A stretch of DNA of 64,000 nt from Minisyncoccota bacterium (lineage in GTDB: Bacteria; Patescibacteriota; Microgenomatia; UBA1400; PJMF01): NCBI GenBank assembly GCA_003173865.1, contig PJMF01000010.1:19088-83087 (forward strand), given 5' to 3'. The notes under the pieces were generated by a model that worked only from the letters and a program-made list of their open reading frames with translations, was not told where the DNA came from and made no database searches. Positions within the stretch are counted from its first letter, which is position 1. Every line of letters begins with the position of its first letter. Below are positions 12,063 to 37,880 of this stretch, piece by piece. A program made the position numbers and the translations under genes.

Positions 12063-12087
12063 ATATTTTGATTTGGTCGCTGTATAA

Positions 12088-12105
12088 GACTTTATCCGAA
12101 CGATA
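12088..12105 (+). repeat. Dispersed repeat copy A (partial)
   Basis: GACTTTATCCGAACGATA matches the 3' half of the roughly 30-bp repeat family. Confidence 0.5.
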
Positions 12106-12215
12106 GTTTAAGCATTGTTGCAGAAACCAATGGTTTGCGCACCTTCCTGTTCTGGTCCCGGCGCGGCAAGCCGTGGGGAAACGAGTTCTACAACAGTTCT
12201 GCAACTTCTTTCTTT

Positions 12216-13787
12216 TTATGCCGGATTCATCACAACAGAAACAGGTAAATAATTAGCAATACCATGGTCATACTGCTTTGGCGATACGTCACCAACAATG
12301 TTTATGACTGCATCTTGCTCGTCAGCATACTCAACTAAATAATATGACGCTTCCACAGGTCCACGCTTGGCATATGGTGTACCAGTACATTTTCTCCATC
12401 CTTCGCTCAATGGGTCAAATTGAGATGATTTTTCGTCCAATACCCCTTTTTGCACTAAAAATTGCCAGAAGTAATTAAGTGCAACAACGTATGTTTGCAT
12501 AATGTCATACGGTAAAAGCTCGCCTGATATACTTGGCAATTCCGCTTGCTTTCCCGGATTAATTGCCCCCTGAACAGTTTGCCAACCAGTAGTTTCTTCA
12601 TGAAGATCATCCAACAATTCCCGCATAACAGGCTCTCTCATGAGGATAGGAAAGCTAACCGGTAATGCACCCATGTCTTTGTCTTCTTCTTCATTCTTCT
12701 TCGCATTTTTTTCTTTGACTCTTCGGACCCCCTCAACAAACTTTTGCCAACTTTGAGGATCTTTGAATATATTCACTTCTAAATTGGTTGTCGTTTGATA
12801 CATATTCTCTACACCGGCGACCATTAGAGTGAAAAACTCGTCTGTTATTTGTTTTCTCGTCCAGCCATATTCTGCATTATGCTCTAGCATTTCATATAAA
12901 ACGCAATCTTGCGGAATCATTTTACTTTGATCTCGCTGGTCTTCAGGTTTCTCCATTTCACTTAGGTGACTATTGATCTTATCAACCACTTGTTGTTTGG
13001 TAGCTGCAACAACACGCAAATTCTCTGTTTTGAGATCACCATCCCCAGTTGCAGCATGAGCTGCATCCATATATGCTCGAATTCCTTCATCATATTGATC
13101 TGCAGTTTCCCAGCTACCCGTAAATGTTTGCGCTAATGCTTCTCCCAAAATCTGTTTGTTGAGAGCTTGGAGGATAAATGGCTTCCCCATTTCTAATCTT
13201 GATAATGCTACTTGTGATCGCTCTTTCACAGCTCTATCAAATGCTCCTGTCATATTGGTCAAGAGTCTCATGATCACTTCCTTGTGATGGTACATTTCTG
13301 GGTCGTTGATATGATGATGAGAATCATCAATTTGTCGTAAATGCGCTTGCAACATTGGTGAACGACCATATGTTTCATCCGGCCCATAATTATCATAATA
13401 ATTTCTAACATCTTGCGGCATCATACGAACAACATTGCGAACTATGCGTTCACCAGCTCTAGAGAGGTAAGCAAAACTTGCTGTTTTACCTTCTGTTTTT
13501 TCATAAACCCACATGGCAAGTTTAAGTATCAAATCAGATCCTCTGCCCGGATTCAAAAGTTGTTCACCAATTTCCACAGGAAAGACATAGAGTGGTGGTT
13601 TTCCATTTTCTTCGTTCAACAATGCTTCTTTAAAAACAAGACCTTGTAGAAAAACGTCAATCGGATCTGAGTCTCCATTGGATCCATCTTCTCTTGGTAA
13701 TTTTTCGGACGCATCCTTATTAATAAATGACATACTACCCCTTTCATAACTCATACTAACTAATAATGTGGAAATGGCATTTTCCAA
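12216..13787 (-). CDS. Hypothetical 523-aa protein (orphan)
   Basis: Long ORF with no motif recognisable by eye. Flanked by dispersed repeat copies A and B. Confidence 0.4.
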   Translation of the reverse strand: MENAISTLLVSMSYERGSMSFINKDASEKLPREDGSNGDSDPIDVFLQGLVFKEALLNEENGKPPLYVFPVEIGEQLLNPGRGSDLILKLAMWVYEKTEGKTASFAYLSRAGERIVRNVVRMMPQDVRNYYDNYGPDETYGRSPMLQAHLRQIDDSHHHINDPEMYHHKEVIMRLLTNMTGAFDRAVKERSQVALSRLEMGKPFILQALNKQILGEALAQTFTGSWETADQYDEGIRAYMDAAHAATGDGDLKTENLRVVAATKQQVVDKINSHLSEMEKPEDQRDQSKMIPQDCVLYEMLEHNAEYGWTRKQITDEFFTLMVAGVENMYQTTTNLEVNIFKDPQSWQKFVEGVRRVKEKNAKKNEEEDKDMGALPVSFPILMREPVMRELLDDLHEETTGWQTVQGAINPGKQAELPSISGELLPYDIMQTYVVALNYFWQFLVQKGVLDEKSSQFDPLSEGWRKCTGTPYAKRGPVEASYYLVEYADEQDAVINIVGDVSPKQYDHGIANYLPVSVVMNPA

Positions 13788-13883
13788 AATGTATCAACTT
13801 GGGTTACTGATGTCAATCATGTCTCCATTTTTGTTTCGTGGTGGAGTGAAGACACCCTAAAATTCTGATGGTTCCCTACTTTG

Positions 13884-14123
13884 TTATTTTCCAATCGTGG
13901 GTTGAATATAAACAGTAGTTTTTCCACTTCCCTGAACTTTCAAGAGACTTTTATCGACTAAGTTCTTCAACCTTCTCTGGGCAGTTCTCCGGGGAATATT
14001 TAGAATATCGAGAGTTTCTTCTAAAGAGATTGAGCCCATCTGTTTCACATAATCAAGCATTGTTATTTCTTCTCTAGAGAGCCGGATAACTTTTTGTTCT
14101 GCATGAGAAACTTCAGCTATCAA
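13884..14123 (-). CDS. Small HTH DNA-binding protein
   Basis: 79 aa. LDILNIPRRTAQRRLKNLVDKSLL looks like a winged-helix or HTH segment. Confidence 0.45.
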   Translation of the reverse strand: MIAEVSHAEQKVIRLSREEITMLDYVKQMGSISLEETLDILNIPRRTAQRRLKNLVDKSLLKVQGSGKTTVYIQPTIGK

Positions 14124-14226
14124 TACTTCCGTTTTGAGTTTTTTCGCGACACATTCGCGCCACTTTGCGCGCCAGAAAATGAAAAGACCATGGTTACTTG
14201 AAGAAAATGTGGCTAGGATAGAGAAA

Positions 14227-14254
14227 ACTCCCCGTGTGGGATTTTATCCAAACG
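14227..14254 (+). repeat. Dispersed repeat copy B
   Basis: CTCCCCGTGTGGGATTTTATCCAAACGG. Confidence 0.55.
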
Positions 14255-14266
14255 GTTGTTTAATCC

Positions 14267-15547
14267 TTAGTTTTCTAGCAACCACTCATACAGAGGAATC
14301 ACTTGTAAAGTTAATCCATCTTGTTGATGGATCATTTTTTCACTTTCGGTTACTATTACCAGTTTGGCTTTTTTCTGCTCTACAGCTGCTTCGACAAGAG
14401 CTCTCACTTCTCTTTCTTTAGTATTTTCATCACCAAGATGCTGGACAACTTGCAGTAAAACAGTATCTTTCGGCAGGAAAAAATCAACTTCATGGTCTTT
14501 ATTTGTCTTATAATAGTAAATATCCTTTGTTTTTCGTCTTAATTGCAAATAGACAGCATTCTCAATGAGCTTCCCTTTATTCTTTGAAAAAGAAAAACCA
14601 ACCGATTGCGTCAAACCGGTGTCAATGCAGTACAACTTTTTAGCAGCAATTTGTTGCTCTTTCACTGAGTAGGCATATTTGTTTACAACAAAAAAAAGCC
14701 AACTATTTTCTAAATACTCGATATAGCTAGAGACTGTATTCACACTTCCTAATTTAAGTAACTCTTTGAGTTTGTTAAACGAAAGAGCAGAAGATATATT
14801 ACTTATCAGATAGAAACTCAGTTCTTTCAAGCTTTTAACATTATCGAGCTTGTAACGCGTCGCAATATCTCTATAGAGAACATCGTCATACAAAGTTTTG
14901 TGAATCTCCAATTCAGGATATTTCAGTGCATCAGGAATTCCCCCTAAAACAATATATTCGTTGACATGCCGCAGAAGTTGTCCTCTTTGTTTTGTTGTTA
15001 ATACCTTTAAACTTGGAATCTCTACTTCACGAAAGCGTAAAAATTCTCGAAACGAAAATGGGAACAACTCAACCCGAATCGACCGACCAGTAAGCCGTGT
15101 CCCTAGCTCTTGACTAAGCAAAGAAGCATTCGAACCAGTTACGATAAACTTATATCCTTGGTCATGGAGTCTTCGTACAAACCGCTCCCACTCAGGTATA
15201 TTCTGTATTTCATCAAACAGGAATGTCTTTTTTTCTCCAAACAAGCTCATGAGTATCTCGTGCAGCTTATCGAAATCCTGAACTTGGAAGTTCAATAATC
15301 GTTCATCTTCAAAGTTGACGAAGTAAAAATCATCTTTCAGGTACCTTTTGGCTACTTGAGCTAAAAGTGTGGACTTTCCCACCCTCCGGAGACCTGTGAC
15401 AACCATGATTTGGGGAGTTTTTACAATATCACCCAAACTGCTTAAAAGCTCCCGTTCTACCCCAATGTCCTTCGCTAGAAATGCCTCATGCTGCTCTTTA
15501 AGAACAGAGGAAAGAACTTCTTTTGTTAATTGTTGATTTGATGTCAT
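14267..15547 (-). CDS. AAA+ ATPase (COG1373/DUF4143 family)
   Basis: Walker A GLRRVGKST; Walker B FLFDEIQ. Confidence 0.8.
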   Translation of the reverse strand: MTSNQQLTKEVLSSVLKEQHEAFLAKDIGVERELLSSLGDIVKTPQIMVVTGLRRVGKSTLLAQVAKRYLKDDFYFVNFEDERLLNFQVQDFDKLHEILMSLFGEKKTFLFDEIQNIPEWERFVRRLHDQGYKFIVTGSNASLLSQELGTRLTGRSIRVELFPFSFREFLRFREVEIPSLKVLTTKQRGQLLRHVNEYIVLGGIPDALKYPELEIHKTLYDDVLYRDIATRYKLDNVKSLKELSFYLISNISSALSFNKLKELLKLGSVNTVSSYIEYLENSWLFFVVNKYAYSVKEQQIAAKKLYCIDTGLTQSVGFSFSKNKGKLIENAVYLQLRRKTKDIYYYKTNKDHEVDFFLPKDTVLLQVVQHLGDENTKEREVRALVEAAVEQKKAKLVIVTESEKMIHQQDGLTLQVIPLYEWLLEN

Positions 15548-15564
15548 ACAAAGACTATACTACA

Positions 15565-15593
15565 AATAGTTTTCACTGTCAATGAAAACTATT
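15565..15593. promoter_or_regulatory. Perfect 11-bp inverted repeat, operator-like, upstream of the ATPase gene
   Basis: AATAGTTTTCA-ctgtcaa-TGAAAACTATT, about 18 nt upstream of the start at 15547. Confidence 0.4.
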
Positions 15594-15674
15594 TGAATAT
15601 AGTTTTCAATATTGGTGAAAGAAAATTTTCCTCCACCAGATGTATTTTGATTCATTTGCTCCCTGTCCATGAGG

Positions 15675-16277
15675 TTATTCGGACTCATTCTTTTTTAGCT
15701 TTCTTGTCTTTCTCTTCATGAGATACCATACTCCACCTCCGCCCACAAGCAACCCAAAAAGAAAGGATCCTCCACTGCCACTATTTGATTGACTCTCTGC
15801 CATTGATTGAGGTGTAGTAGATGGCTGAATGATTGGAGCAGGAGTTGGTAAAGACAAAGCTTCAGGAGGGGGAGTCGGAACCGGTAATATTGAAGGAGAT
15901 GGCGTAACAACTGTTTGCGCTTTAAAAACTGGAGAAGGTATAGGAGAAGGATTTGCAGGAACTACAGCTTGTATTGTTGAAGTTCCGCCGCACTCAACCA
16001 TACTACTATAACTGCAAGAAGAGCCAGTCCATCCATCTTTGCAAATAACCGCACCATCTGTTTGAGGGCCCGCACCACAATCAGCTCCACCATGTCCTGA
16101 GCAACAACCACTTCGTGCAAACACAACAGACGCTGAAATGAAAAAAAGAGAGAAAAATAAAAATGAAGTGAAGAGAGACCTACTCACATATTTAGAGTAT
16201 AGAAACCTTACAGAGTTGTTAAGTAGTAACTTCAATAAAGAATTGCTGTTATCTTTTAAACCATTCCTGAACAGCAT
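15675..16277 (-). CDS. Secreted or anchored Cys-rich/Pro-Thr-rich protein with C-terminal TM and basic tail
   Basis: N-terminal TM or signal, Cys-rich domain, PSP/PTP-rich linker, C-terminal GGGGVWYLMKRKTRK sorting-signal-like tail. Confidence 0.45.
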   Translation of the reverse strand: MLFRNGLKDNSNSLLKLLLNNSVRFLYSKYVSRSLFTSFLFFSLFFISASVVFARSGCCSGHGGADCGAGPQTDGAVICKDGWTGSSCSYSSMVECGGTSTIQAVVPANPSPIPSPVFKAQTVVTPSPSILPVPTPPPEALSLPTPAPIIQPSTTPQSMAESQSNSGSGGSFLFGLLVGGGGVWYLMKRKTRKLKKNESE

Positions 16278-16432
16278 AAGCTATTGTTGGAAGTCTTCCG
16301 TTTATTCCTATCCAACCAGCGACTAGAAGTATTAAATCTGACCATTCAAATTTTACTTGAGAGAAAAATGTATATACCTTTCGACTACCCATGCTGCAGG
16401 TGCGTCCTTTTTAATTTTATCCGTATCCTGAG

Positions 16433-16458
16433 TTTTATTTTACGAATGCAAAAGCGTT
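16433..16458 (+). repeat. Direct repeat DR-1 flanking the SLOG-like gene
   Basis: TTTTATTTTACGAATGCAAAAGCGTT, identical at 25 of 26 positions to 17817-17842. Confidence 0.6.
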
Positions 16459-16484
16459 ACTTCAATTCCCAAACTCATTTACCT

Positions 16485-17699
16485 TTATACACCACTTCCC
16501 ATCATATTTTGACCTATAGACTGGATGAGCGCACTTGAATTTTCACTCTCAACATATTCCAACCACGCCTCTGAGTTATTGAAGAGAGACTTGTACTGTG
16601 GATCTCTCTGAAAAGGAACTAGGGCTTTCTCAAATGTTTCTTTTTCTGAGAAACCACCAACTCCACCTACAACTACAATACGATATCTTTTTCCTTGTCG
16701 AATAGCCGTCAATGCATTATCGAGATAAATTTGGAGTTGAGCTGTCGTCTTCTCTCCACCTCCAATAAGAAAAACTGTTTCTACATTAAATTTTCGTGAA
16801 GCAATCCCATATTCACCTACGAGTTCATCCCCCCATTTACTCTCACTATCTGATGGGGGTTGAGCTATCAAAATTAAACTATTACTATCCACAACATACT
16901 TTTCAGGGTTTTTTGCTAATGGGAGAGACATCAAACTTTCAATTCCTTGTTCTTCTAACGGAGCTAAAATTTGCTTTTGAATTCCTGCACTATTACCAGC
17001 AGCTACTATGAGTGGTCTTTTCCCACCTACTTTTGAAGACTTGTACTCCAAAATTTCACTTACAATGAGCTGGCACACAGATTTTGCTCTTTGTGCCTGT
17101 TCAACAGTGAGACCTTCTTGCGTTTCACCGCTTTGGAGAACTGCATCCATTGTTTTTGCCCATCCATCAATAAGTACTTTGCGTGCGTAAAAAAATTCTG
17201 GATAGTGATCTCTTAATTTTTCTGCCTCAATTATACGATATTTATTTTCACCATTTCCACCGGCCATTTCATAACGCAGTTGTGAAACAATATTTTTAGC
17301 TTCTCGTAGTAACTCTTGTTGATCGACTATGTAAGAAAAAGGATCGTCAAGTTCGCGTTGCAGTACAGTATTCGTTGACTTGTACTCAGCAATTGTCACA
17401 CGGCGATCGATTGTTAAATCAGGAGAACTAAATCGCAAATATACTCTAAATCTTCCCCTATATACAATTTCCTCTCCAAAACTCCCATGTGTTTCCTCTT
17501 CTTCTGATTCAGATAATTCAAGTGTCCACCCTTTATGCATAAGGGGTGCAATCGTATCAAAAAGATGCTGGACTGACTTCATCCGCCGACCTCCCGGTCG
17601 CGGTTCTAAGTACGGAACTAGAGAAGACAATTTATTTCTGAGATCGTATCCACCAATTTTTTGTTCTTGGGAGTGATTGTCACCTTCTTTCCGCATCAT
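16485..17699 (-). CDS. SLOG/LOG-like Rossmann nucleotide-binding protein with N-terminal extension
   Basis: C-terminal half has PLIVAAGNSAGIQ and VVVGGVGGFSEKETFE, resembling LOG/DprA GGxGxM and PGGxGTxEE motifs. N-terminal roughly 200 aa unassigned. Confidence 0.4.
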   Translation of the reverse strand: MMRKEGDNHSQEQKIGGYDLRNKLSSLVPYLEPRPGGRRMKSVQHLFDTIAPLMHKGWTLELSESEEEETHGSFGEEIVYRGRFRVYLRFSSPDLTIDRRVTIAEYKSTNTVLQRELDDPFSYIVDQQELLREAKNIVSQLRYEMAGGNGENKYRIIEAEKLRDHYPEFFYARKVLIDGWAKTMDAVLQSGETQEGLTVEQAQRAKSVCQLIVSEILEYKSSKVGGKRPLIVAAGNSAGIQKQILAPLEEQGIESLMSLPLAKNPEKYVVDSNSLILIAQPPSDSESKWGDELVGEYGIASRKFNVETVFLIGGGEKTTAQLQIYLDNALTAIRQGKRYRIVVVGGVGGFSEKETFEKALVPFQRDPQYKSLFNNSEAWLEYVESENSSALIQSIGQNMMGSGV

Positions 17700-17816
17700 A
17701 GTATTGTGGATTATATCAAAAGTGGTTCTGAAATCGTCCTATAAAGTATCGTTTTGCTCGCTCGGTGGGACAATTTCAGAGTAACAAACTGGGCAGAAGT
17801 CACTCCATATCTTGAT

Positions 17817-17842
17817 TTTTATTTTACAAATGCAAAAGCGTT
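17817..17842 (+). repeat. Direct repeat DR-2 flanking the SLOG-like gene
   Basis: TTTTATTTTACAAATGCAAAAGCGTT. Confidence 0.6.
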
Positions 17843-17882
17843 GTTGAACTTTGCTCTCTAGCCTACAACCTTCTTCTCCTTG

Positions 17883-18170
17883 CTATTTATTTTTGGAAAA
17901 TTTTCTTTTTTCGAGCTCAACTAGGATATCATCTAAAGTGATTCCTCGCTCAACCAGTAAGACAAGTGTGTGAAATGTGAGATCCGCTATTTCAGAAATC
18001 AGACGCCCTTTGCTCTCATTCTTTGCGGCAATCACAACTTCAACGACTTCTTCACCAACTTTTTGAATAATTCGATCATCTCCATCGCGAAAAAGCGACG
18101 CAACATATGAGCCCTCGGGCATTGCTTTCTTTCGAGCCAAGATCGTATTGTAAAGTTCCTCAAGTGTCAT
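17883..18170 (-). CDS. hisE: Phosphoribosyl-ATP pyrophosphatase
   Basis: MazG-like LEELYNTILARK...EEVVEVVIAAKNE. Confidence 0.85.
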   Translation of the reverse strand: MTLEELYNTILARKKAMPEGSYVASLFRDGDDRIIQKVGEEVVEVVIAAKNESKGRLISEIADLTFHTLVLLVERGITLDDILVELEKRKFSKNK

Positions 18171-18508
18171 AGATCTCCTTGTGATATTTCATTAAAAAAA
18201 CAGGAATAGCTCCCCGTGTGACAAACAGCACTACCCATCAGTTCGGCCTTTATGAGGATCGCATCACAATCACAGTCAGTAATAATCGATTTCACCTTCA
18301 ATTTATTTCCTGATTCTTCACCTTTCATCCACAGTTTTTGTCTGCTTCTACTCCAGAAGTACACAAAGCCAGTTTCTTGAGTTTTTTCCAACGCTAATTG
18401 ATTCATATAGCCAAGCATCAAAATAAGACCAGTTTTGTCTTCCTGAATAATAGTTGGAACTAAACCATAGCCCTTTTTAAAATTAATTGTCTGTTTTTTC
18501 ATATTCAA
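18167..18508 (-). CDS. hisI: Phosphoribosyl-AMP cyclohydrolase
   Basis: [25 protein letters not shown]. Confidence 0.85.
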
Positions 18509-19260
18509 CTTCTCACAATAATGTTTTTTGATCGCAAAAAATCTTTTACTTCTTTAATTCTCAATTCGCCGAAGTGAAACAGGGAAGCAGCTAAAGCTGC
18601 ATCAGCTGATCCTTTTTGAAAAACATCCAAGAAGTCACTTTTCTCTCCAGCTCCCCCCGAGGCAATGACTGGCACTGTGACCACCTTAGAAATAGCTTTG
18701 GTCAGCACAAGATCATATCCTTGTTTGGTTCCATCTCTATCCATACTGGTTAAAAGAATTTCACCCGCACCTCTCCGAACTCCTTCCTTTGCCCACTCTA
18801 AAGCATTTAAACCAGTTTCAAGTTTGCCACCATTTATCAGTACTTCCCACCCAGAATCTTTTTTCTTGGCATCGATGGCTAAAACAATACATTGACTACC
18901 AAACAGTTTTGCAGCCTCTGTAATCAGATTAGGATTCTTTACAGCCGCTGTATTCAAAGAAACTTTATCTGCTCCTGCTAGTAAAACACTACGAATGTCC
19001 TGAATAGAATTAATGCCACCGCCCACGGTAAAAGGAATAAAAATTTCTTTTGCGACCTTTTTCACTACCTCTACCATTGTTTTTCGCTTTTCATTTGAGG
19101 CTGTTATATCAAGAAAAACTAATTCGTCAGCTCCTTCATCATTGTAGAATTTAGCCAACTCAACTGGATCACCAGCATCTTTTAAATCAACGAAGTTGAC
19201 ACCTTTAACTACACGACCGTTGTTTACATCGAGGCAAGGAATAATGCGTTTAGCTAACAT
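18505..19260 (-). CDS. hisF: Imidazole glycerol phosphate synthase cyclase subunit
   Basis: [12 protein letters not shown]... Start trimmed to M23 of the track ORF so that it abuts hisA. Confidence 0.9.
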
Positions 19261-19960
19261 TGTTTGCCTCTTGTAAATCAATTCGCCCTTCATAAATGGC
19301 CTTCCCAATAATGACTCCTGCAACATTCATCGTCTTCAGTTTTTTAATGTCAGTAATTGATGAGACACCACCAGCTACGATCAAAGGAGCTTTAACGATC
19401 TCAAGCAACTTACTTATGCCTTCATAGTCAGGTTGGGTGAGAGTGCCATCTTTCAATACATTAGTATAGATAAATTTCTTTACCCCTAACTGTTCAAGTC
19501 TTTGCGCTGTTTTCATCAAATCTTCACTTGTTTCTTCTTGCCAACCTCTTTTTGCTAGTTTCCCATTCTTGCTATCTAGAGAAACGATAACTTCTTCAGC
19601 ATAGAGACTAAGAATTTGTTTCAAAAGGTCTTCATTTTCTATAGCCAAAGTACCAATAATTACCTTACTGACCCCAATTGAAAGGAGTTGTTCAATTGTT
19701 TTTAAAGTTTGAATCCCACCCCCAACTTGAACAGGTACGGTAACTTTGACCATGATTTTTTGAACGGCTTCAAAGTTCTCTACTGCGCCGCTTTTCGCTC
19801 CATCTAAATCAACAATGTGTAATGCTTTTGCTCCTGCCAAGGTCCATTTCTGAGCCATTATCGTAGGATCGTCACTATAGACAGTTTCTTCAGAGAAATT
19901 GCCCTGTTTGAGGCGGACACACTTTCCGTTTCTGATATCGATAGCCGGAATAATTAACAT
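19250..19960 (-). CDS. hisA: ProFAR isomerase
   Basis: [17 protein letters not shown]. Confidence 0.9.
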
Positions 19961-21209: not shown

Positions 21210-21865
21210 AGCTTGCCTTCCATCCCTGTACCTTTCAAACCAATGGTTGTACCAGCACGGTAAGGACATGGCCCTAAGGACTCTCGTAGGGCTTCACCAA
21301 AGGCTTTGAAAGCAGCTTCCCAGGTGTGGTGAGAATCTTCTCCAGCAAAAAACTGCACTTGAACAACACAACCTGCACCTTGGGAAAATCCATCAAAGAA
21401 TTGACGCAAGTTAGTGCTTAAAATATCTTCGACTTGCTCTAGTTTCATTCCTGGCACTTCACCCCTTAAAAAGGTATAGGCCCTTCCGTCAAAGGCAAGT
21501 GTGACAGCAACGAGCGCTTCATCAAAAGCCACGGTATAAAAACCTCTCTGATTCACGCCTTCCTCTTTACGAGCATCGAGCATTTCTCGCACAGCTCGTC
21601 CCAGGGCCAAGCCAGTATCTTCTACCACTATGTGATCGAGAGGTTCTGCGATAGTAGGAGTATAGGTGATGTCAAAATTCAAGCAGGCGCGTGAAGCTAT
21701 GCCTGTTAGCATGTGATTGAAAAATCGATTGCCGGTTTGGATTTTGTACTCACGTCGAGGCACATCTTCGATTGCTATATCGATTTGTGATTCCAATGTC
21801 ACTCGAGATAAAGAAATTTTTTCTTTTTTTGCTTCGTTAATAAACAAACCTAATTTTTTATTCAT
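21206..21865 (-). CDS. hisB: Imidazoleglycerol-phosphate dehydratase
   Basis: HMLTGIASRA; DSHHTWEAAFKAFG. Confidence 0.9.
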   Translation of the reverse strand: MNKKLGLFINEAKKEKISLSRVTLESQIDIAIEDVPRREYKIQTGNRFFNHMLTGIASRACLNFDITYTPTIAEPLDHIVVEDTGLALGRAVREMLDARKEEGVNQRGFYTVAFDEALVAVTLAFDGRAYTFLRGEVPGMKLEQVEDILSTNLRQFFDGFSQGAGCVVQVQFFAGEDSHHTWEAAFKAFGEALRESLGPCPYRAGTTIGLKGTGMEGKL

Positions 21866-23162
21866 ATACTCTCCTTTTTTGATTCAGTCGAACATTGACG
21901 CTATTCCAGTGTGCATCTAATTTTTCAATTCCGGACACAACATCAACAATCTCAGCTAAGTTTTCTAAACCTTCTTTAGTGAGATACTGTATTTCTGAAG
22001 ATTTCTGAAAGGTTTCAACACTTACTGCTGACACCATCTTTGACCAGTAGCCAGTCGGTAAAATGTGATTCGTGCCACTGGCATAATCTCCCACAGCGAC
22101 TGGAGCGTATTGGCCGAGAAATATAGACCCTGCATTTTTAATTTGGGGCAAAACCGCAAATGGTTCTGCAACCAACACTTCTAAGTGTTCGGGGCTGTAG
22201 TCATTCGTAAAATCAATCGCTTCTTGCCAGGATTCTGTGATAACTGCACAAGAATATTTTGCAAGTGATTTTTCAATTACTTCCCGTCTGGATAAATATT
22301 GAATTTGCCGCTCAACTTCTTTTTGCGTAGCTTTGGCCAGCTTTTCTGAATCAGTGACTAAAACTCCAGCAGCATCAGGCGCATGCTCAGCACGAGCCAA
22401 AATATCCGCCGCACAGAAAATTGGATTAGCATCTTTATCAGCCAAGATGATTGCTTCAGATGGTCCCGCCACCATATCAATATTAACTTTGCCATAGGCC
22501 AACATTTTGGCAGCTTGGGTATAAATGCTTCCTGGTCCGGAAATTTTTAAAACAGGCTGAATCGTTTCTGTTCCATAGGTCATCGCCGCAATTCCAGCAA
22601 TACCACCAACTCTATACACCTCATCACAACCAGCTAAGTCAGCAGCAATTAACATTTCTGGATACTCACCAGTAGGCGGGTAACACGCAACAACTCGGGG
22701 AACACCGGCCGCTTTGGCAGTAACGGTCAGAATTTGCATCACAGTTGGTAGCGGAACTTGACCAGCTGGCACTGCCAAACCAACTGAGGCGATTGGCGCA
22801 ATCTTGTAACCAACTTGTACTCCAGGCACAAAAGATTTCAATACAGTTTCCTGCTCAGCTTTTGAAAGCGCATTTTGTTTGGAAATACTGATTTGACGTT
22901 TCAGCACTTCCACTACACGAGGATCGACAATTTTATATGCGTTCTCAATATCCTTGCGCGTGACTCTCAAATCTTTCAATTCAAAATCTTTTTTATCAAA
23001 CTGACGCGTGTACTTTACAATTCCCACATCACCTTCATTTTTAATGGTTTCCATCCAGCCGGCCACGTATTCTTTGATTTCAGAAATATCGAGCATGGCA
23101 CGCTCAGTAATTTTTTTCTTTACTTGTGGGTCGGTTTCAGACCAGCGATAAATATTAAGCAT
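21858..23162 (-). CDS. hisD: Histidinol dehydrogenase
   Basis: Start trimmed to MLNIYRW. Typical HisD core. Confidence 0.9.
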   Translation of the reverse strand: MLNIYRWSETDPQVKKKITERAMLDISEIKEYVAGWMETIKNEGDVGIVKYTRQFDKKDFELKDLRVTRKDIENAYKIVDPRVVEVLKRQISISKQNALSKAEQETVLKSFVPGVQVGYKIAPIASVGLAVPAGQVPLPTVMQILTVTAKAAGVPRVVACYPPTGEYPEMLIAADLAGCDEVYRVGGIAGIAAMTYGTETIQPVLKISGPGSIYTQAAKMLAYGKVNIDMVAGPSEAIILADKDANPIFCAADILARAEHAPDAAGVLVTDSEKLAKATQKEVERQIQYLSRREVIEKSLAKYSCAVITESWQEAIDFTNDYSPEHLEVLVAEPFAVLPQIKNAGSIFLGQYAPVAVGDYASGTNHILPTGYWSKMVSAVSVETFQKSSEIQYLTKEGLENLAEIVDVVSGIEKLDAHWNSVNVRLNQKRRVYE

Positions 23163-24249
23163 AAGTTTTTTTTTCCTCCAAAACCTTGTTAATGCAATCG
23201 ACAACTTTTTGCTGATACTGTTCTTGGGGAATCCCTAAATAAAAATACTGTTCGCCAAATCCTTCATAAATAGAGCAGTCTTTGATAAAAATATTTTCTT
23301 TTTTTAGCTGCTCTTTGAGTTGAGCCCCAGTTGTTTTGGAAAGAATCTTGACGATAGAAAAGGTCGTTTTTGTGTCGAGAACTTCTAACTGATTAATTTG
23401 CCGGAGCTTGGTTTCAAACTTTTTCTTTAACTCCTGAAATTCTTTGATTGATTGTTTAATTAATTCTGGTTGCCGTAGGATCGTAATGGCGGCGGCTTGA
23501 GCAAATCGGTTAACACAAAACACTTGATTTGTCTGTTGAAGTCTATTTAAGTAGGCAGCGACTTCTTGATTACAGATTACATACCCCAATCTTGCACCGG
23601 CCAAAGCAAATACTTTTGAGAAACTTCGGATGATAATCAAGTTTGGATAATTTTTTGCTAGTTGAGCAGCTGTCACTCCACCTAATTCAAAGTAACACTC
23701 ATCAATTACCAGCAAACACTTGATCTTCTTCGCAATATATTCAATTTGGTCTTTAGTTAATAAAAGATTTCCAGTCGGATTATTTGGGTTGGCAATCCAG
23801 ACAACTTTTGTTTTTTCTGTTACAGCACCCAACAGTTTTTCTACATTCAGAGAAAAGTCTTCCTCTAATGACACAGTGACTGTCTTTGCACCCATCATTT
23901 GACTGACTGATTCAAAACAGGGATATGAAGGTAGGGGCATGACCACTTCATCACCTTCAGCAATAAATACTTTGGCAATTAGCTCCAGTGCCTCATCACT
24001 GCCATTGGTGGGAATAATATTCCCAGCCTCAACTTGATTGTATTGAGCAAGCTCTTCTCTCAATTCTTTTTTTGTTGGACTGAGATAAAGATTAATTTTC
24101 TCAATTTCTTTTTCGACCGCTTCTTTATATACCTCAATAAACTTTTGATTTTCTCCCCACAACAATCTCATCCCCGTATTGTCGGGAATATCACCCCAGT
24201 TTATTTCTTGCATCTCTCGAATTTGTTTGCGGACTAGTTGGACAATCAT
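23155..24249 (-). CDS. hisC: Histidinol-phosphate aminotransferase
   Basis: PLP-lysine region SFSKVFALAGARLGY. Confidence 0.85.
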   Translation of the reverse strand: MIVQLVRKQIREMQEINWGDIPDNTGMRLLWGENQKFIEVYKEAVEKEIEKINLYLSPTKKELREELAQYNQVEAGNIIPTNGSDEALELIAKVFIAEGDEVVMPLPSYPCFESVSQMMGAKTVTVSLEEDFSLNVEKLLGAVTEKTKVVWIANPNNPTGNLLLTKDQIEYIAKKIKCLLVIDECYFELGGVTAAQLAKNYPNLIIIRSFSKVFALAGARLGYVICNQEVAAYLNRLQQTNQVFCVNRFAQAAAITILRQPELIKQSIKEFQELKKKFETKLRQINQLEVLDTKTTFSIVKILSKTTGAQLKEQLKKENIFIKDCSIYEGFGEQYFYLGIPQEQYQQKVVDCINKVLEEKKTYA

Positions 24250-25508
24250 ATGTCTTGATCTTTCAACTTCTCTAAAACTTCTTGAAAACTGCAGGTAGTT
24301 TGTTCTCCTGTCTGGAGATTCTTGAGAACTAACTGTTGTTTACTCACCTCGTCAGAACCTGCAATAATGGCAAAGGGGATATTTTTCCTATCCGCGTATT
24401 TCAAGTGAGTAGATAATTTTTCTTGGCTGTTCAGGTATATCTCGGTATTAATACCTTGATCACGTAAGTCGCTTGCTATTTTGAGTGAATACTCTTCAAA
24501 AGATGGATCAAAAATGGACACAAACACTTGAGCTGTAGACTTGGCCGAATCTGGCCAGAGATTTTGATCAAGAATGACATCAACGATGCGATCTAGTCCC
24601 AAAGTTGTTCCTACTGCTGGCAAATCGGTACTTCCAAGTGAACCCATCAATTTGTCATATCTGCCCCCACCCGTAATTGACCCGATCTTCGGTTCAGTCA
24701 CTACAGTTTCAAAAATTGGACCAGTATAGTAATCAAGTCCACGAGCTAAAGTGGGGTCAAACTTCCACGAAGATTTTTGAACACCCAGACTCTCAAGAGC
24801 GGCAATGACTTTTTGGAGATACTCGTCCGGCTGAGCATTCTTGAGTGAAACAAAAATATTCTTGATTGTGTTTGAAGAGATGCCCTTTTCTGCAAGTTCT
24901 ACTTCTACTTCTTCTTGAGTCTTTTTATCTAACTTATCAATGGACTGGATAACCGATAAAGTTTTGTCTTTCGGCACTCCAGCTTTTTCCATCACATTAA
25001 ACAAGACTTGGCGACTATTGATACGAATCGTGAACTCGGCAAAATCAAGTCGCTGCAAACACTTTTCGATTAAAGCGACAATTTCCGCATCAGCCAGAGG
25101 TGAGGTATTCCCCACAATATCAATGTCGCATTGGGTAAATTCACGATACCGACCTTTGGCAGGTTTATCTGCTCGAAAAACATTCTGAATTTGATACCGC
25201 TTAAATGGTAAAGGCAAATCATTTTTATATTGAGAGACCACTCTCGCCAAAGGCACAGTGAGGTCATATCGCAAACCGACTTTGCGCTTCCCGTTATCTA
25301 GAAATTTATAGACAAGCTTATCTGCTTCATCACCATACTTCCCAAGCAACAACGCTTGTTGCTCTAATGTAGGCGTTTCCAGAGGCTCATAGCCAAAGGA
25401 CTCAAACACTTCTACAAGAGTTTCTTTCACTTGCTTTCTGATCGTCGCTTGCGCTGGTAATAAATCGCGAAAGCCTTTCAAAGTGATCGGTTGATTCTTT
25501 TTCTTCAT
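24246..25508 (-). CDS. hisS: Histidyl-tRNA synthetase, full length with anticodon-binding domain
   Basis: N-terminal KGFRDLLP. 420 aa including the C-terminal anticodon-binding domain, so not a HisZ. Confidence 0.8.
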   Translation of the reverse strand: MKKKNQPITLKGFRDLLPAQATIRKQVKETLVEVFESFGYEPLETPTLEQQALLLGKYGDEADKLVYKFLDNGKRKVGLRYDLTVPLARVVSQYKNDLPLPFKRYQIQNVFRADKPAKGRYREFTQCDIDIVGNTSPLADAEIVALIEKCLQRLDFAEFTIRINSRQVLFNVMEKAGVPKDKTLSVIQSIDKLDKKTQEEVEVELAEKGISSNTIKNIFVSLKNAQPDEYLQKVIAALESLGVQKSSWKFDPTLARGLDYYTGPIFETVVTEPKIGSITGGGRYDKLMGSLGSTDLPAVGTTLGLDRIVDVILDQNLWPDSAKSTAQVFVSIFDPSFEEYSLKIASDLRDQGINTEIYLNSQEKLSTHLKYADRKNIPFAIIAGSDEVSKQQLVLKNLQTGEQTTCSFQEVLEKLKDQDI

Positions 25509-25519
25509 ACTTCTCCTTT

Positions 25520-26392
25520 TTACAAAATCATTTTTTCAATTGGTAAAACGATAATTCCTGATGCACCAACACTCTTGAGTTTTTCAATAGTTTCCCAAAA
25601 CGTGTCTTCTTTAATGACTGTTTGCACTGATAACCACCCTTCTTTTGCTAAAGGGGAAATCGTTGGTGCTTTTAATCCAGGTGTAATCTTCTTTAATTTC
25701 GGCAGAATTTCTGCTGGAGCATTCATCATCACGTATTTGTAATTCTGGGCTGACAAAACCCCTTTGAAACGGATCATGAGTTTTTCTAGCAATACTCGTT
25801 TACTCTCTACGGATGAAGTTTTATCGTTTGCAATAAGAACCGCTTCTGAATCATAAATTTTCGTGAGCGGGCGCAAATCATTTAATGTCAGGGTACTCCC
25901 CGTTGATGTGAGATCGGCAATGGCTTGTGCTACACCCAACGTTGGCGCAATTTCCACGGAGCCATTAATTTTGATTGTTTCAACGGAAATTCCATTTTTC
26001 TTAAAGAAGTTTTTGGTTGAGTTGGGATAGGTGGTGGCGATAGTTTTTCCGCTCAAATCGGCTATTGCTTGTACTCCTGATTCCTTTGGTACAGCTAAGG
26101 TTAAGGCACAGAATCCATATCTCAAATTCAAAAGTTTCTTCACATTTGCCGGTCTTTCTTCATACAGCAAATTTTGACCAAGAATCCCAATATCCACGCT
26201 TCCTGAAGCCACATAATCTGGAATGTCATCATCACGAACATACACAATTTCGAGTGGAAAGTTTCGACAACTTGCAAAGAGCTTCTGCGTGTAACTTTCA
26301 AACTCCAAACCTGATTTCCGCAAAAAATCGAGCGTGTCATCAGTCAGACGACCACCCTTTTGAATTGCGAGTTTTAAACTTTTGTTGTTCAT
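25520..26392 (-). CDS. hisG: ATP phosphoribosyltransferase, long form
   Basis: MNNKSLKLAIQKGGRL. 290 aa implies the long regulatory form. The track ORF 25520..26602 is an artefactual extension through tRNA-His. Confidence 0.85.
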   Translation of the reverse strand: MNNKSLKLAIQKGGRLTDDTLDFLRKSGLEFESYTQKLFASCRNFPLEIVYVRDDDIPDYVASGSVDIGILGQNLLYEERPANVKKLLNLRYGFCALTLAVPKESGVQAIADLSGKTIATTYPNSTKNFFKKNGISVETIKINGSVEIAPTLGVAQAIADLTSTGSTLTLNDLRPLTKIYDSEAVLIANDKTSSVESKRVLLEKLMIRFKGVLSAQNYKYVMMNAPAEILPKLKKITPGLKAPTISPLAKEGWLSVQTVIKEDTFWETIEKLKSVGASGIIVLPIEKMIL

Positions 26393-26422
26393 ATTTGCTA
26401 TATATTCCTTTTTCAAATCTCT

Positions 26423-26497
26423 TGGACGGCTGAGGGGAGTTGAACCCCCGACTCTCTTCTCCACAGGAAGATGCTCTACCGCTGAGCTACAGCCGTC
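26423..26497 (-). tRNA. tRNA-His (GUG) with encoded G-1
   Basis: Minus strand reads GACGGCUG-UAGCUCAGCGGUAGAGC-A-UCUUC-CUGUGGA-GAAGA-...TTCAACT...CAGCCGUC. Anticodon GUG. 8-bp acceptor stem GACGGCUG/CAGCCGUC (G-1:C73). Full CCA not encoded. Confidence 0.85.
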
Positions 26498-26511
26498 ATA
26501 TTTTTTACAAC

Positions 26512-26757
26512 AAAAAACCTCCCGTTCATTACTCGCCACGTCAAAAACAACATGACAAATAAGGAACGAGAGGCAATAAAAAAGGACCTCCCGCGGTCCC
26601 ATCCTTAGTTCCTAAAAGTATTTCTCTTCTAGGCTCTTAGGCCGGCTCCGCTAATGCGACATCGGCTGTTGGATTTAACGGTTCAACTTCCGTAAGGCAT
26701 TTTGGCCTTCAGCTCGTGGATCGTGACTCCACTCAAACGCTTTTGTATTAACTTGTA
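26512..26757 (-). promoter_or_regulatory. His-specific T-box riboswitch leader with short Stem I
   Basis: Hairpin GUGGA-GUCACGA-UCCAC with CAC in the loop (26725-26723). F-box CCGUUA (26681-26676). T-box motif GGAUGGGACCGCGG (26610-26591) where UGGG's G matches the His C73 discriminator. Antiterminator element GGGAGG versus terminator CCUCUCGUUCC...GAACGGGAGG plus U6 (26573-26512). Confidence 0.6.
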
Positions 26758-26763
26758 ACAGGT

Positions 26764-26811
26764 ATTGTAGAGTATTAATTTAAAATGTCAACATGTTAAC
26801 TTATTAACATG
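26764..26811 (-). promoter_or_regulatory. Sigma-70-like promoter (-35 TTGACA, 16-nt spacer, -10 TACAAT) with abutting palindromic operator
   Basis: Minus strand -35 at 26791-26786 and -10 at 26769-26764. Inverted repeat CATGTTAA-ctta-TTAACATG at 26792-26811 lies immediately upstream of the -35. Confidence 0.45.
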
Positions 26812-26814
26812 GAT

Positions 26815-27117
26815 TTATCTTTTGGAAGAACCATATGTTCTCTGAAGAATAGCTGCATACCCTTGCCACTTTTCCTTGTAAAGCCATTGAGCAACTCGCG
26901 TCACAGTGGTTGTGCTTGTGCCCACTTTCTTGGAAATATCGAGGTATGAAAGTTTCGTCGTCCAGAGCAACTTAGCAATTTGAAATCGACTAGAGAACTC
27001 TTCAATTTCAGCGGGGGTGAGGATATCTCTCAAAAAAGAAGCTACTTCTTTTTGTCCTTTAAGAGAGGAAACAGCATTGATAAGCTCTTTGTCTTGTTTT
27101 GAAGGGTATGTTTGCAT
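26815..27117 (-). CDS. TrpR-family (YerC/YecD-like) DNA-binding protein
   Basis: 100 aa. ...LWTTKLSYLDISKKVGTSTTTVTRVAQWL carries an HTH resembling the YerC/TrpR-like family. Confidence 0.5.
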   Translation of the reverse strand: MQTYPSKQDKELINAVSSLKGQKEVASFLRDILTPAEIEEFSSRFQIAKLLWTTKLSYLDISKKVGTSTTTVTRVAQWLYKEKWQGYAAILQRTYGSSKR

Positions 27118-27272
27118 GTTAATATTTTAACATTGAGAATCTTGCAGACCAACATCAGCTTGCCAATTATTCAGGATTAATCACATAGAAGAGAATGACC
27201 CTAAATCTTAATTCAAATAAACTCAAATCTGAAGCTATGTTGATTTAGTGCTACTTGATTCAGCGATGCTGC

Positions 27273-27295
27273 ACGTGTGGGAGTTTATCCGAACA
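27273..27295 (+). repeat. Dispersed repeat copy C
   Basis: CACGTGTGGGAGTTTATCCGAAC. Confidence 0.55.
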
Positions 27296-27467
27296 TTTTT
27301 TAGTTGAGAATATTTCACTAGCATTTTAATTTCTGAGGTAAGTAAAAAACAACAAAAGCTCCTTAAGGAGCTTTTGCTTTTGCCTGGAAAAGGCACAATT
27401 GTAGGGTATACAATACCCTTATTATACATAAGAAAAAGAAAAAATCAAATTACTATAGGCTATATTG

Positions 27468-27573
27468 CGGAGGAAGCGGGATTCGAACCCGCGAAAAACA
27501 TTCCTGTATACCCTACAAATATGTCTTTTCCAGATTGTCACTCTAGTGCATTCGGCCGCTCTGCCACCCCTCC
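27468..27573 (-). tRNA. Atypical 106-nt tRNA-like gene (Tyr-like type II architecture, anticodon loop GUGACAA)
   Basis: GGAGGGG-UG-GCAGAGCGGCCGAAUGC-A-CUAGA-GUGACAA-UCUGG, then a 37-nt variable hairpin, then GCGGG-UUCGAAU-CCCGC-UUCCUCC-G. Acceptor 5 WC plus 2 G.U pairs. Too long for a standard tRNA. Confidence 0.4.
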
Positions 27574-28464
27574 CTTTTCATTCATACTTTTAAGTTGATT
27601 TTTCAAGTAATCTATTCCCTTTTGTAAAATGGAATAGCCATTCCCTTTTTGCTTCACATAAGTGCTCTTTATATTAGAGATATTTCCACTAGTAAAGTTA
27701 GATGTAGATATAGAGTCTTTTAGCTTATCAGATAGATATTCAATATCAGTTGCTGTTAATGATTTGATATTTCCCTTGGCTTCTGCATATATTAAGAGCC
27801 ACAAAATCTTATCGGATCTTTTCGCGAGATGATGAAATCGTGGGAATCCTTCTAATTCTGACATTACTTCTAGAGATTCCAGTCCTGCAGTTAAGATTTG
27901 TTTTTTCTTTTTGGTTTTATTGGTTCCTACTGAGAAGCCACCTTTTGGACGATTTGCGAAGTTTGAACTAAGTACTGAAAGCCCCGTTCTTGTGACGTAG
28001 TATTTGTTAGAATTTCCCAATTGAGAAATATATCCTAACTTAACTGTGTGTTTAAAATCACGAGCTAAATTTTTTGTTGGGTCTTTTTCTCCTGCTTTTA
28101 TGAAAAGATCTTTAATGTCACTTGGAGAAAAGTTATCCTGAGAATTAACTTTTTGAAAATAATTCCCCAAAATTAATACTTTATCTGGATTAAACTTAGC
28201 TTCTGGGTAAGATAAAAGCTCTTCTTGAGGAGAAAGACTTGGCGAAGTGTATTGGGAAAAACCCATTTCAGGATTTTGAGGAATTTGAGTCAAGCTAGAA
28301 TTTGAAACACCCTCTTCTTTTTCATCCTCATTACCGACTTTAATAGCAGCTATAATTTTTAAAGCAAGTTCAAAAGAAATTTCATTTTCAAATGATAGAG
28401 ATTCATCTGTTATTAAAATTTTTGGCATGTTTTGAACAGTATGCCTTCCAGTCCGTGATGTCAA
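27538..28464 (-). CDS. Hypothetical 308-aa protein whose stop lies inside the tRNA-like gene
   Basis: ORF with no recognisable domain. The last 12 codons overlap the 5' half of the tRNA-like sequence. Confidence 0.35.
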   Translation of the reverse strand: MTSRTGRHTVQNMPKILITDESLSFENEISFELALKIIAAIKVGNEDEKEEGVSNSSLTQIPQNPEMGFSQYTSPSLSPQEELLSYPEAKFNPDKVLILGNYFQKVNSQDNFSPSDIKDLFIKAGEKDPTKNLARDFKHTVKLGYISQLGNSNKYYVTRTGLSVLSSNFANRPKGGFSVGTNKTKKKKQILTAGLESLEVMSELEGFPRFHHLAKRSDKILWLLIYAEAKGNIKSLTATDIEYLSDKLKDSISTSNFTSGNISNIKSTYVKQKGNGYSILQKGIDYLKNQLKSMNEKGGVAERPNALE

Positions 28465-28500
28465 TGAGGAAAATTATGAGGAAAAAAATTAAAATAGTGC

Positions 28501-28836
28501 TCACTTAGTAGAACAAACAAAAACCAATTTTGGCACTATGGTTTCGGACAATAAGAAACTTTTGTCTGCATGGTGTTGTTTTCCATAATATTGCTCCCAA
28601 GTTCCCCAACCTCTGTAGAAACTTGAAAGTGTCTTATCTATAAAATTAACAATGTGTAAATCTCCGTCATGTTGAAAATCTTTCAGGTCGAGAAAAACTG
28701 TTTCAATAGCCATCTGATTACCTGGCGGTTGAGTTACAATACAACCCATCAATTTGTTTCGGACTGCCCCTCTCTGAGTAACTCCTGAATCGGTTAATTC
28801 TTGCAAATAAGTTCCTGGTAAAGGCAATGTTGCCAA
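28501..28836 (-). CDS. Hypothetical 111-aa protein
   Basis: ORF only. Confidence 0.3.
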   Translation of the reverse strand: MATLPLPGTYLQELTDSGVTQRGAVRNKLMGCIVTQPPGNQMAIETVFLDLKDFQHDGDLHIVNFIDKTLSSFYRGWGTWEQYYGKQHHADKSFLLSETIVPKLVFVCSTK

Positions 28837-28910
28837 AGAGCGAGGGTTTGAAGTCTTTGAGAAAAAGCCGACAACTGAGGTTGAGAAAGTGATCTTATTA
28901 TATTTTTCAT

Positions 28911-28943
28911 TAGCTCCCCGTGTGGGACTTTATCCGAACGATA
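28911..28943 (+). repeat. Dispersed repeat copy D (full length)
   Basis: TAGCTCCCCGTGTGGGACTTTATCCGAACGATA. Confidence 0.6.
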
Positions 28944-35209: not shown

Positions 35210-35370
35210 GGTTCTTTATATGGCAATTTTACACTCAAGTGTATCAAACCAAAAGTGACCGGAATTGATGAAGAAAAGAAATGCTTCCAATGCTTGCATT
35301 GCCACCACACCAGATACATAGATCTCATCAAGATATGGAAGCATGGCAGCAATGGAAGCAAAAATGAGAA

Positions 35371-36030: not shown

Positions 36031-36125
36031 ATATTTTTCCTTTTCTATCGAGCGCCCAAATATTGTACAGTATAATTTCCATATATGGAATGGTTAAATA
36101 TGGCAAGTCCTCAAATAATGAGAGG

Positions 36126-36365: not shown

Positions 36366-36469
36366 GTCTCCTTATTTTGGTGTTGCAAACCCCAACCTTT
36401 CCAGCTTTACAGTTCTGGTTTTTTTCGTATTATGAGGATAAATGAAAATTATCATAAGAATCAATTAAT

Positions 36470-37876: not shown

Positions 37877-37880
37877 GTTT

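Follow-up and report, generated by a model that had tools for sequence, protein, structure and literature searches.

We identified four dispersed, same-orientation copies (A–D) of a short intergenic motif, whose conserved core in related contigs is the 27-nt sequence GCTCCCCGTGTGGGACTTTATCCGAAC, in a 64-kb stretch of a Minisyncoccota genome (Patescibacteriota; contig PJMF01000010.1, positions 19,088 to 83,087; hereafter the window) that also encodes a large serine recombinase (LSR) next to a tRNA-Asn gene. The copies are probably attL-type attachment (att) site junctions, each consisting of a tRNA-Asn end and an element-borne arm (P'), that successive integrations of LSR-encoding elements left behind at tRNA-Asn, and they probably mark the borders of acquired gene blocks. 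This reading is drawn from sequence comparison, and the observations that carry it are the make-up of the motif, the inverted repeat that it forms with an arm within the LSR gene, a 5-bp difference in half-site spacing, a geometry shared by several genomes, and mosaic flanks. Related loci and protein homologs from public collections are referred to by L and P numbers, respectively.

The first-pass annotation of the window had found four intergenic copies by eye, and all of them are present where it placed them, on the + strand. A search with the 20-mer GTGTGGGACTTTATCCGAAC, allowing up to three mismatches, returned exactly these four sites (0.00 expected from 100 shuffles), a pattern search with the full 33-mer matched D alone, and a repeat search of the window grouped A–D as one family with identities to reference copy B of 70% (A), 81% (C) and 93% (D). 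Copy A was first delimited at 12076-12105; the limits of the copies were refined by a profile search with all family members (Table 1), which gave no further good copy in the 64 kb. All four have one orientation on the 3' side of tRNA-Asn. D, the strong copy closest to the recombinase gene, is the only one in the window identical to the 27-nt consensus of other contigs, B and C diverge slightly from it, and A, which lies farthest from tRNA-Asn, is the most decayed, with the outer half-site ACTTTATCCGAACGATA retained and the inner part degraded. A gradient of decay from a perfect D to a poorly preserved A fits the proposed series of integrations loosely. A look-alike within hisI (18205-18220, E=0.09 in the profile search) had been set aside as coding, and we agree. 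Two relatives of the motif had been overlooked, namely a weak fifth copy at 35179-35197 and an opposite-strand relative at the junction of the recombinase gene and tRNA-Asn.

The left 7–10 nt of the motif, (TG)GCTCCCCG, are the reverse complement of the tRNA-Asn acceptor end with or without CCA, its first bases TGGCTCCCCG being the reverse complement of the tRNA-Asn 3' end. Where CCA is present, as in L023, the tRNA-Asn end CGGGGAGCCA is the reverse complement of the first ten bases of the motif, while tRNA-Asn of L011 ends in CGGGGAGC, matching copies that begin GCTCCCCG. The better-preserved copies of the window, most clearly D, also begin in this way, as do the tRNA-Asn ends of L023 and L011 when reverse-complemented. 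The right ~20 nt read TGTGGGACTTTATCCGAAC, and their outer half-site TTATCCGAAC pairs, in inverted orientation, with GTTCGGATAA, a sequence located in the last codons of the recombinase gene, where it encodes "VRIS". As part of the same reading and with the same probability, we interpret the right ~20 nt as the putative P' arm carried by the element and the left part as the chromosomal side of the crossover.

Orthologous LSR gene ends are fused to tRNA-Asn in L023, L024 and L028 and to the motif in L010, whose LSR shares 82% amino acid (aa) identity with the window LSR and 96.5% with that of L023. In L010 the motif comes immediately after the LSR end, giving the two-armed site GGTTCGGATAAGTGAGACGTGGCTCCCCGTGTGGGACTTTATCCGAAC with arms GTTCGGATAA and TTATCCGAAC that are 100% complementary, 27 nt apart and span 47 bp; at the LSR-tRNA junction of the window, the half-sites GGTTCGGAT and ATTCGAACC are 89% complementary and 26 nt apart. 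The left arm is coding, and the C-terminal ..LVRIS.. is invariant in all 30-odd close LSR homologs. Beyond the subsequent ..WL(P), the C-termini of the 36 LSR homologs found diverge into classes: about ten read through into the tRNA T-arm ('..DSN..'), and seven, in addition to L010, read into a motif-like arm ('VWDFIRT', 'VMNEIRT', 'RWDDFRT' and similar), these peptides being translations of the motif or its variants. Homologs of the latter class include P0003, P0028, P0030, P0031 and P0032.

The two kinds of junction differ in half-site spacing. Counted from GTTCGG to CGAAC on the junction sequences, the span is 42 bp at all four LSR-tRNA junctions (window, L023, L024, L028) and 47 bp at all three LSR-motif-type junctions, namely those of L010, of L012, where the left arm is decayed, and of L032, where the right arm has diverged. 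Inserting CTTTA into the tRNA arm yields the motif (CCCCGTGTGGGA[CTTTA]TCCGAAC versus CCCCGACTAGGA-TTCGAAC). In serine-integrase sites, the zinc-ribbon (ZD) motif of attP is set 5 bp farther outwards than that of attB (PMC3783163). Taken together with this rule, the 5-bp shift suggests that the motif represents a core and a P'-type arm, with the B'-type arm coming from the tRNA.

At the right border of a resident integrated element that also encodes PrimPol (Table 1), the LSR gene and tRNA-Asn are convergent and their 3' ends overlap. The terminal LSR codons (..LVRISNTWLLG) contain the P-arm half-site GTTCGGATAAG, and the junction with the tRNA is written GGTTCGGATAAGCAACACGTGG|CTCCTCGGCTAGGATTCGAACCTAGAACC or GGTTCGGATAAGCAACACGTGG|CTCCTCGGCTAGGATTCGAACC; equivalent LSR-tRNA junctions occur in L023, L024 and L028. 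The protein has 513–516 aa (longest open reading frame (ORF) 516 aa; collection copy P0001 513 aa). The resident element is syntenic in L023–L027 and in the contig of P0057, and in L023–L027 it likewise adjoins tRNA-Asn and rpoD-dnaG. Among relatives, rpoD and the PrimPol-LSR module are conserved (64–89% aa identity), and the gene content to the left of the module is different in each one compared. The left boundary of the module (position 35208 in the window, ...CTTTATATGGCAATTTTA) recurs in L023, L024, L008 and L009, with different left-hand DNA in each. Exactly at this boundary lies the weak fifth site (35179-35232), in which the motif-like arm is followed by TGGCTTCTCC, resembling a tRNA-Asn end, and then by AAGGTTCTTTATATGGCAATTTTAC. 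This site is a candidate attL of the resident element, whose attR at 44494-44544 is clear; the attL could be either D (28909) or the weak site, and in the latter case D belongs to an older unit.

Table 1. Motif copies, junctions and other features of the 64-kb window (E values from nhmmer).
Feature	Position	Strand	Sequence	Remarks
Copy A	12072-12106	+		E 1.7e-7
Copy B	14225-14258	+	CTCCCCGTGTGGGATTTTATCCAAACG	E 5e-10
Copy C	27265-27299	+	GCTGCACGTGTGGGAGTTTATCCGAACA	E 1e-8
Copy D	28909-28943	+	GCTCCCCGTGTGGGACTTTATCCGAACGATA	E 1.4e-12
Weak fifth site	35179-35197 (site to 35232)	+	TGTGAACTTTATCCATAGC	15/19 positions match the motif arm
Resident integrated element	35208-44515	+		DUF4352 lipoprotein, XRE-type HTH, PrimPol, several unknown ORFs, LSR
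LSR gene	42977-44527	+		Resolvase PF00239, Recombinase PF07508, Zn_ribbon_recom PF13408
attR-type junction	44494-44544	+	GGTTCGGATAAGCAACACGTGG, CTCCTCGGCTAGGATTCGAACCTAGAACC	Element P arm joined to tRNA-Asn 3' end and T-arm
tRNA-Asn(GUU)	44513-44776	-		Group I intron RF00028, 56.5 bits; spliced exons form tRNA-Asn (ARAGORN)
Intron of tRNA-Asn	44554-44742			189 nt, between anticodon positions 35 and 36
TrpR-like gene	26815-27117	-		Beside copy C
T-box-like leader	within 26425-26746	-	UGGNACCGCG (box)	RF00230, 43.8 bits (gathering score 93), local E 1e-7
tRNA-like sequence	27468-27573	-		RF00005, 45 bits; not called by ARAGORN
39-nt repeat pair	16420-16458, 17804-17842		TCCGTATCCTGAGTTTTATTTTACGAATGCAAAAGCGTT	90% identical
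86-nt direct repeat	3774-3859, 33579-33664			77% identity

The unspliced tRNA-Asn gene was missed by ARAGORN. Similar intron-bearing tRNA-Asn genes are present in L024–L028 and L032, those of L023, L011 and L039 are intron-less, and an intron at this position is typical of Patescibacteria (PMC13011429). Named homologs of the recombinase, the helix-turn-helix (HTH) protein and HisF are labelled Woesebacteria, Patescibacteria, Microgenomates or Roizmanbacteria. Together with the intron-bearing tRNA-Asn, these labels point to a bacterial source, probably a member of the Patescibacteria of the Microgenomates type. The variable DNA left of the module contains genes of the cyclic-oligonucleotide-based antiphage signalling system (CBASS) type in two relatives (SMODS in L024, 1533-2477; SAVED in L023, 1296-2570); small metabolic genes take the equivalent position in the window.

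The order of a forward motif followed by an LSR gene or LSR remnant with its P arm, all on one strand, recurs in four contigs, with motif-to-P-arm distances of 15.6 kb in the window (D to the 44494-44544 junction, with the LSR gene to the right of D), 7.6 kb in L006, 4.8 kb in L008 and 6.1 kb in L018. In L011 the motif and tRNA-Asn are 8 kb apart with their relative orientation unchanged, and L032 holds a tandem array of a truncated LSR (LSR1), a P-core-P'-like site, an island with a second LSR, tRNA-Asn, and rpoD-dnaG. The truncated distal recombinase of L032 (9025-11167) lies beside an rve-type (DDE) transposase gene. LSR genes or their remnants adjoin motif copies in L006, L008, L010, L018 and L032. 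In PrimPol-LSR deletion stubs of ~0.5 kb in L008 (8120-8623) and L018 (585-1018), the last ~20 codons of the LSR gene and the P arm are joined to the left boundary with a portion of the DUF4352 gene. With both ends kept, these miniature non-autonomous remnants reveal a route of unit decay. Degraded P arms also precede several motif copies (L012, L014, L017 and copy B of the window), copy B being preceded by GGCTAGGATAGAGAAAA, which resembles a shortened remnant of the recombinase-side arm (GGTTCGGATAAG...).

Genome and metagenome collections were scanned with GTGTGGGANTTTATCCRAAC by exact match. Of the 21 loci returned, 14 are conserved past the search pattern over the full 27-nt core, which is found with hardly any change in about 12 independent contigs, and the remainder are chance matches; the scan of genome contigs contributed six loci, of which two are family members (L005, L006) and four are due to chance. 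The family contigs have G+C contents of 35–43%, and a profile search added further copies to L008 and L021, diverged in sequence and equally oriented. L005 and L021 are the same 1.41-Mb sequence (DASPLQ010000012.1 = Ga0196971_1000001, 36% G+C), which carries a Patescibacteria-type motif under the label 'Vitreimonas sp.', and L006 is an 8-kb contig binned as 'Limisphaerales' with a Patescibacteria-type motif and LSR; these taxon labels look wrong through mis-binning or mislabelling. Among viral contigs, neither the motif, nor the P-arm pattern, nor the LSR (searched with a single protein and with a 21-sequence profile) was found, except for one GC-rich chance match, and 12–30 kb of the window had no megablast match in phage genomes.

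Between contigs that are 91–98% identical, homology stops exactly at the motif. With flanks denoted by letters, L018 and L019 read X-motif-Y, L009 reads X-motif-Z and L008 reads V-motif-Y, and L014 has only the right flank in common with L017 and L020. These breaks indicate that the motif is a recombination or insertion boundary. Many copies adjoin cellular genes (tRNA-binding protein, oxidoreductase, PfkB kinase, response regulator), and short integrase-less blocks of 1.6–6 kb separate copies in the window, L008 and L021.

Within the window, the genes neighbouring A–D are all on the minus strand, and in gene sense every copy sits between the end of one gene block and the start of another. The gene context described in the first-pass annotation is correct: a 523-aa ORF and a 79-aa HTH ORF lie between A and B, the tRNA-like sequence, a 308-aa ORF and a 111-aa ORF lie between C and D, and a 615-aa orphan adjacent to D ends 42 nt past it. 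Its remark that copies lie shortly before a small gene or after a long orphan is positionally true, and would follow from their siting at junctions between inserted blocks. Copies B and C are 104 and 148 nt upstream of small HTH genes, A is located between convergent gene ends, and on the minus strand the motif typically lies 8–135 nt past the stop of the preceding gene. The TrpR-like gene by copy C has a counterpart next to the motif in L017 and L020 (71% aa identity, same geometry). Segment B–C is a 13-kb T-box-controlled his operon, whose HisF is closest, among named homologs, to proteins of Microgenomates and Roizmanbacteria; given these nearest relatives, we do not argue for the operon as foreign DNA.

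From this layout we infer recombination at the motif sites, the integrase that made A–D and the history of the array. The tRNA-Asn gene would be the chromosomal anchor (attB side). An element with an attP of the form P-core-P' would recombine with the attB at the tRNA-Asn 3' end; its P arm would restore the tRNA end beside the recombinase gene, giving attR (44494-44544), and the displaced tRNA end together with P' would remain at the far side of the element as attL, which is the motif. New insertions at the restored tRNA would displace older junctions outwards, leaving same-orientation copies 3' of tRNA-Asn. Older units would lose their recombinase, and deletions between direct copies would reshuffle blocks, so that integrase loss and such deletions together are proposed to account for integrase-less blocks and mosaics. 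Every segment between copies would then be an insertion, an assumption to be made with particular caution for the 13-kb segment B–C.

Several points weigh against this history. Among the loci examined, no intact element is bounded by the motif on one side and by its own LSR on the other, no integrase is encoded in A–B (2.1 kb), B–C or C–D (1.6 kb), and the left boundary of the PrimPol-LSR module itself resembles the motif weakly. Copies A, C and D are without a recognisable B- or P-type half-site on the left. Serine integrases are not expected to reuse hybrid sites, and repeated insertion presupposes that the rebuilt tRNA end acts as attB together with the previous P arm. The 13-kb his-operon block may be native to the genome and not inserted; A and B would then require a different history, such as a secondary site or a rearrangement. 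The exact-match scans detect well-conserved copies only, which biases the sample of related loci. The ~2.5 kb visible left of the module in L023–L028 contain no motif, which neither supports nor refutes the model, and searches anchored on the HTH gene to extend this view leftwards led mostly to elements of other types.

Alternatively, the motif could be a pre-existing dispersed repeat that mimics the tRNA-Asn end and serves the LSR as a secondary pseudo-attB, so that the copies mark potential or used landing sites. The phage phiRv1 integrase, which reportedly targets the REP13E12 repeat family, offers an analogy, having one integrase and several similar sites per genome. Many copies do lie beside ordinary cellular genes with no recombinase nearby, and the LSR end that abuts the motif in L010 is what insertion into such a site would produce. 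We nevertheless regard this as unlikely, since the outer half-site of the motif has attP-type spacing (47 bp) and the real target, tRNA-Asn, has the attB-type spacing of 42 bp; the single orientation of the window copies on one side of tRNA-Asn and the P-arm remnants ahead of several copies also speak against it. The phiRv1 targets are a host repeat at attB-type geometry, and the repeated part here has attP-type geometry. A different proposal builds on the mosaic flanks (X-motif-Y, X-motif-Z, V-motif-Y), the 1.6–6-kb integrase-less blocks in the window, L008 and L021, the attC-like position of the motif shortly after gene stops, and the strong conservation of 27 nt between contigs: the motif would be an active site of integron-like exchange, with integrase-less cassettes moved by the LSR in trans. 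However, left arms are mostly not conserved, leaving most junctions without two arms, and known LSRs need special factors to recombine like sites (PMC3783163); the missing arms and this directionality argue against active exchange. Deletion between direct repeats explains the mosaics equally well, no circular cassette was observed, and we consider cassette exchange rather improbable. The same low probability attaches to the tRNA-Asn locus being a gene-capture platform run by a serine recombinase, a functional integron analogue from a different recombinase family; if true, such a platform would let ultra-small genomes exchange accessory genes and even biosynthetic ones.

Of the first-pass proposal of a repeat that is MITE-like (miniature inverted-repeat transposable element) or marks cassette boundaries, the boundary part is supported by the mosaic flanks and the attachment-site parts of the motif. 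A terminal repeat of a transposon or MITE, or a selfish repeat of the repetitive extragenic palindromic (REP) type, unrelated to the recombinase, would agree with short, dispersed, intergenic copies and with the inverted GTTCGGA(TAA) upstream of the motif in a few loci (L010, L013, L014, L017). It is very unlikely because no copy in the window has an inverted partner or target-site duplication, ORF screens detected no transposase nearby, DDE or Y1, the inverted partner is, where present, the coding 3' end of the LSR gene, and copies are few and clustered rather than numbering hundreds. A role as an operator bound by the neighbouring HTH or TrpR-like proteins, as a terminator or as a small structured RNA (the last also a first-pass proposal) would agree with the small HTH genes downstream of B and C and with minus-strand 60-nt windows that fold slightly better than shuffles at B (z -2.2) and D (z -2.0). 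At A and C, z is near 0, folding of both strands of the four copies gave no common structure (z from 0 to -2.2 across differing folds), and the sequence is invariant rather than covarying. Rfam searches at gathering threshold and at E<=1 (window, C–D region and 14 related loci) returned nothing at the motif, nor did a promoter and terminator scan of 26.7–29.1 kb, and the stem-loop proposed for CCCCGTGTGGG amounts to 3–4 bp and is inconsistent among predicted folds. The location of A between convergent genes and the unrelated neighbouring genes in other contigs are further points against regulation, which leaves the tRNA-Asn end and the symmetry with the LSR arm unexplained and is in our judgement highly improbable. 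The first-pass idea of a site for a dedicated regulator is wrong as stated; the most plausible binder would be the LSR, not a transcription factor.

Other candidates were rejected on inspection. There is no array as in clustered regularly interspaced short palindromic repeats (CRISPR), the copies being kilobases apart, no similarity or symmetry to a Xer/dif site, and no clustered TnsB-type repeats as in the ends of Tn7 or CRISPR-associated transposons (CAST). An archaeal promoter is at odds with the T-box, sigma-70 and Patescibacteria homologs, which are bacterial. A tRNA pseudogene fails because the last 7–10 nt alone match and the remainder does not fold as a T-arm.

The favoured reading, attL-type scars of a serine integrase at tRNA-Asn, rests on established systems, as both serine-integrase att sites and tandem tRNA island arrays are known (PMC3783163, PMC7192596). 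Like the att sites of A118/LI, Bxb1, phiC31, TP901-1 and SPbeta, where attP and attB recombine to attL and attR by recombinases with the same domains, the sites described here are ~40–50 bp long, with imperfect inverted half-sites around a central crossover, an element half-site 5 bp further out (47 versus 42) and hybrid junctions at element ends. The window LSR shares only ~25% identity with phage integrases. Protein-coding genes are the targets of most characterised LSRs; here, the putative target is a tRNA 3' end, the P arm is coding and supplies the conserved C-terminus (..LVRIS..WL) of the recombinase itself, several attL-type copies are lined up in tandem, and no recombination directionality factor was identified. 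In common with tRNA island arrays, which are usually made by tyrosine integrases (TIGER/Islander, PMC7192596), an intact tRNA stands at one end, same-orientation 3'-end repeats separate variable and often orphan gene blocks, an integrase is kept in some units only (here, the one nearest the tRNA), and content varies among relatives. The differences are a repeat that shares just 7–10 nt with the tRNA, the rest being an element-specific arm, a serine recombinase (no tyrosine integrase was detected among the screened ORFs of the window), and a Patescibacteria host of the Microgenomates type. Such a short tRNA identity is expected for the 2-bp crossover of serine recombinases, in contrast to the long identity block of tyrosine integrases.

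A serine recombinase of the phiRSM type that integrates into a tRNA 3' end is cited as reference 22 in PMC7192596; it shares the kind of attB with our system, but is a small, resolvase-like enzyme. Integron attC arrays likewise have one conserved site after each block, in the same orientation, with blocks reshuffled among relatives. Unlike in integrons, there is no IntI tyrosine integrase and neither a folded bottom-strand R''/L''-L'/R' structure nor an extended palindrome, the end polarity is reversed (GTTCGG...CCGAAC versus RYYYAAC...GTTRRRY), and blocks may hold many genes. Our literature searches returned no description of this tRNA-Asn LSR system, and a 2026 study of tRNA introns in Patescibacteria (PMC13011429) does not mention recombinases. 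What appears to be new is an LSR family that would target the tRNA-Asn 3' end with a coding P arm, its accumulated attL-type scars, and its Patescibacteria host.

Although the underlying mechanism of serine-integrase att sites and tRNA tandem islands is already well known, the GCTCCCCGTGTGGGACTTTATCCGAAC copies provide a usable marker for borders of integrated DNA near tRNA-Asn in Microgenomates-type Patescibacteria, in which mobile elements and the origins of orphan genes are poorly charted. The intron-bearing tRNA-Asn genes of the phylum are thereby linked to a hotspot of horizontal gene flow. The findings also define a candidate integrase system that combines the L010 site as an attP of ~47–50 bp, the 3' end of tRNA-Asn as attB, and the recombinase of 513–516 aa. 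This system might find use in genome engineering and in the genetics of a phylum for which such tools are lacking.

The window contains further features that are listed in Table 1. The T-box-like leader is directly followed by a tRNA-His(GUG) gene (64 bits), then by hisG, a HisS/HisZ-like gene and the remaining his operon; this order of T-box, tRNA gene and biosynthetic operon is unusual. Located 170 nt away from copy C, the tRNA-like sequence partly coincides with the 3' end of the longest 308-aa ORF and has ~35 nt inserted in its variable region that can form an 8-bp stem, with an apparent anticodon loop of GUGACAA. A second intergenic repeat of 39 nt, unrelated to the motif, flanks a 404-aa ORF immediately downstream of the his operon. 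The two copies of the 86-nt direct repeat probably represent paralogous gene starts: copy 1 ends where ORF 3856-4386 starts, and copy 2 spans the 5' end of a NUDIX-like ORF (33125-33664).

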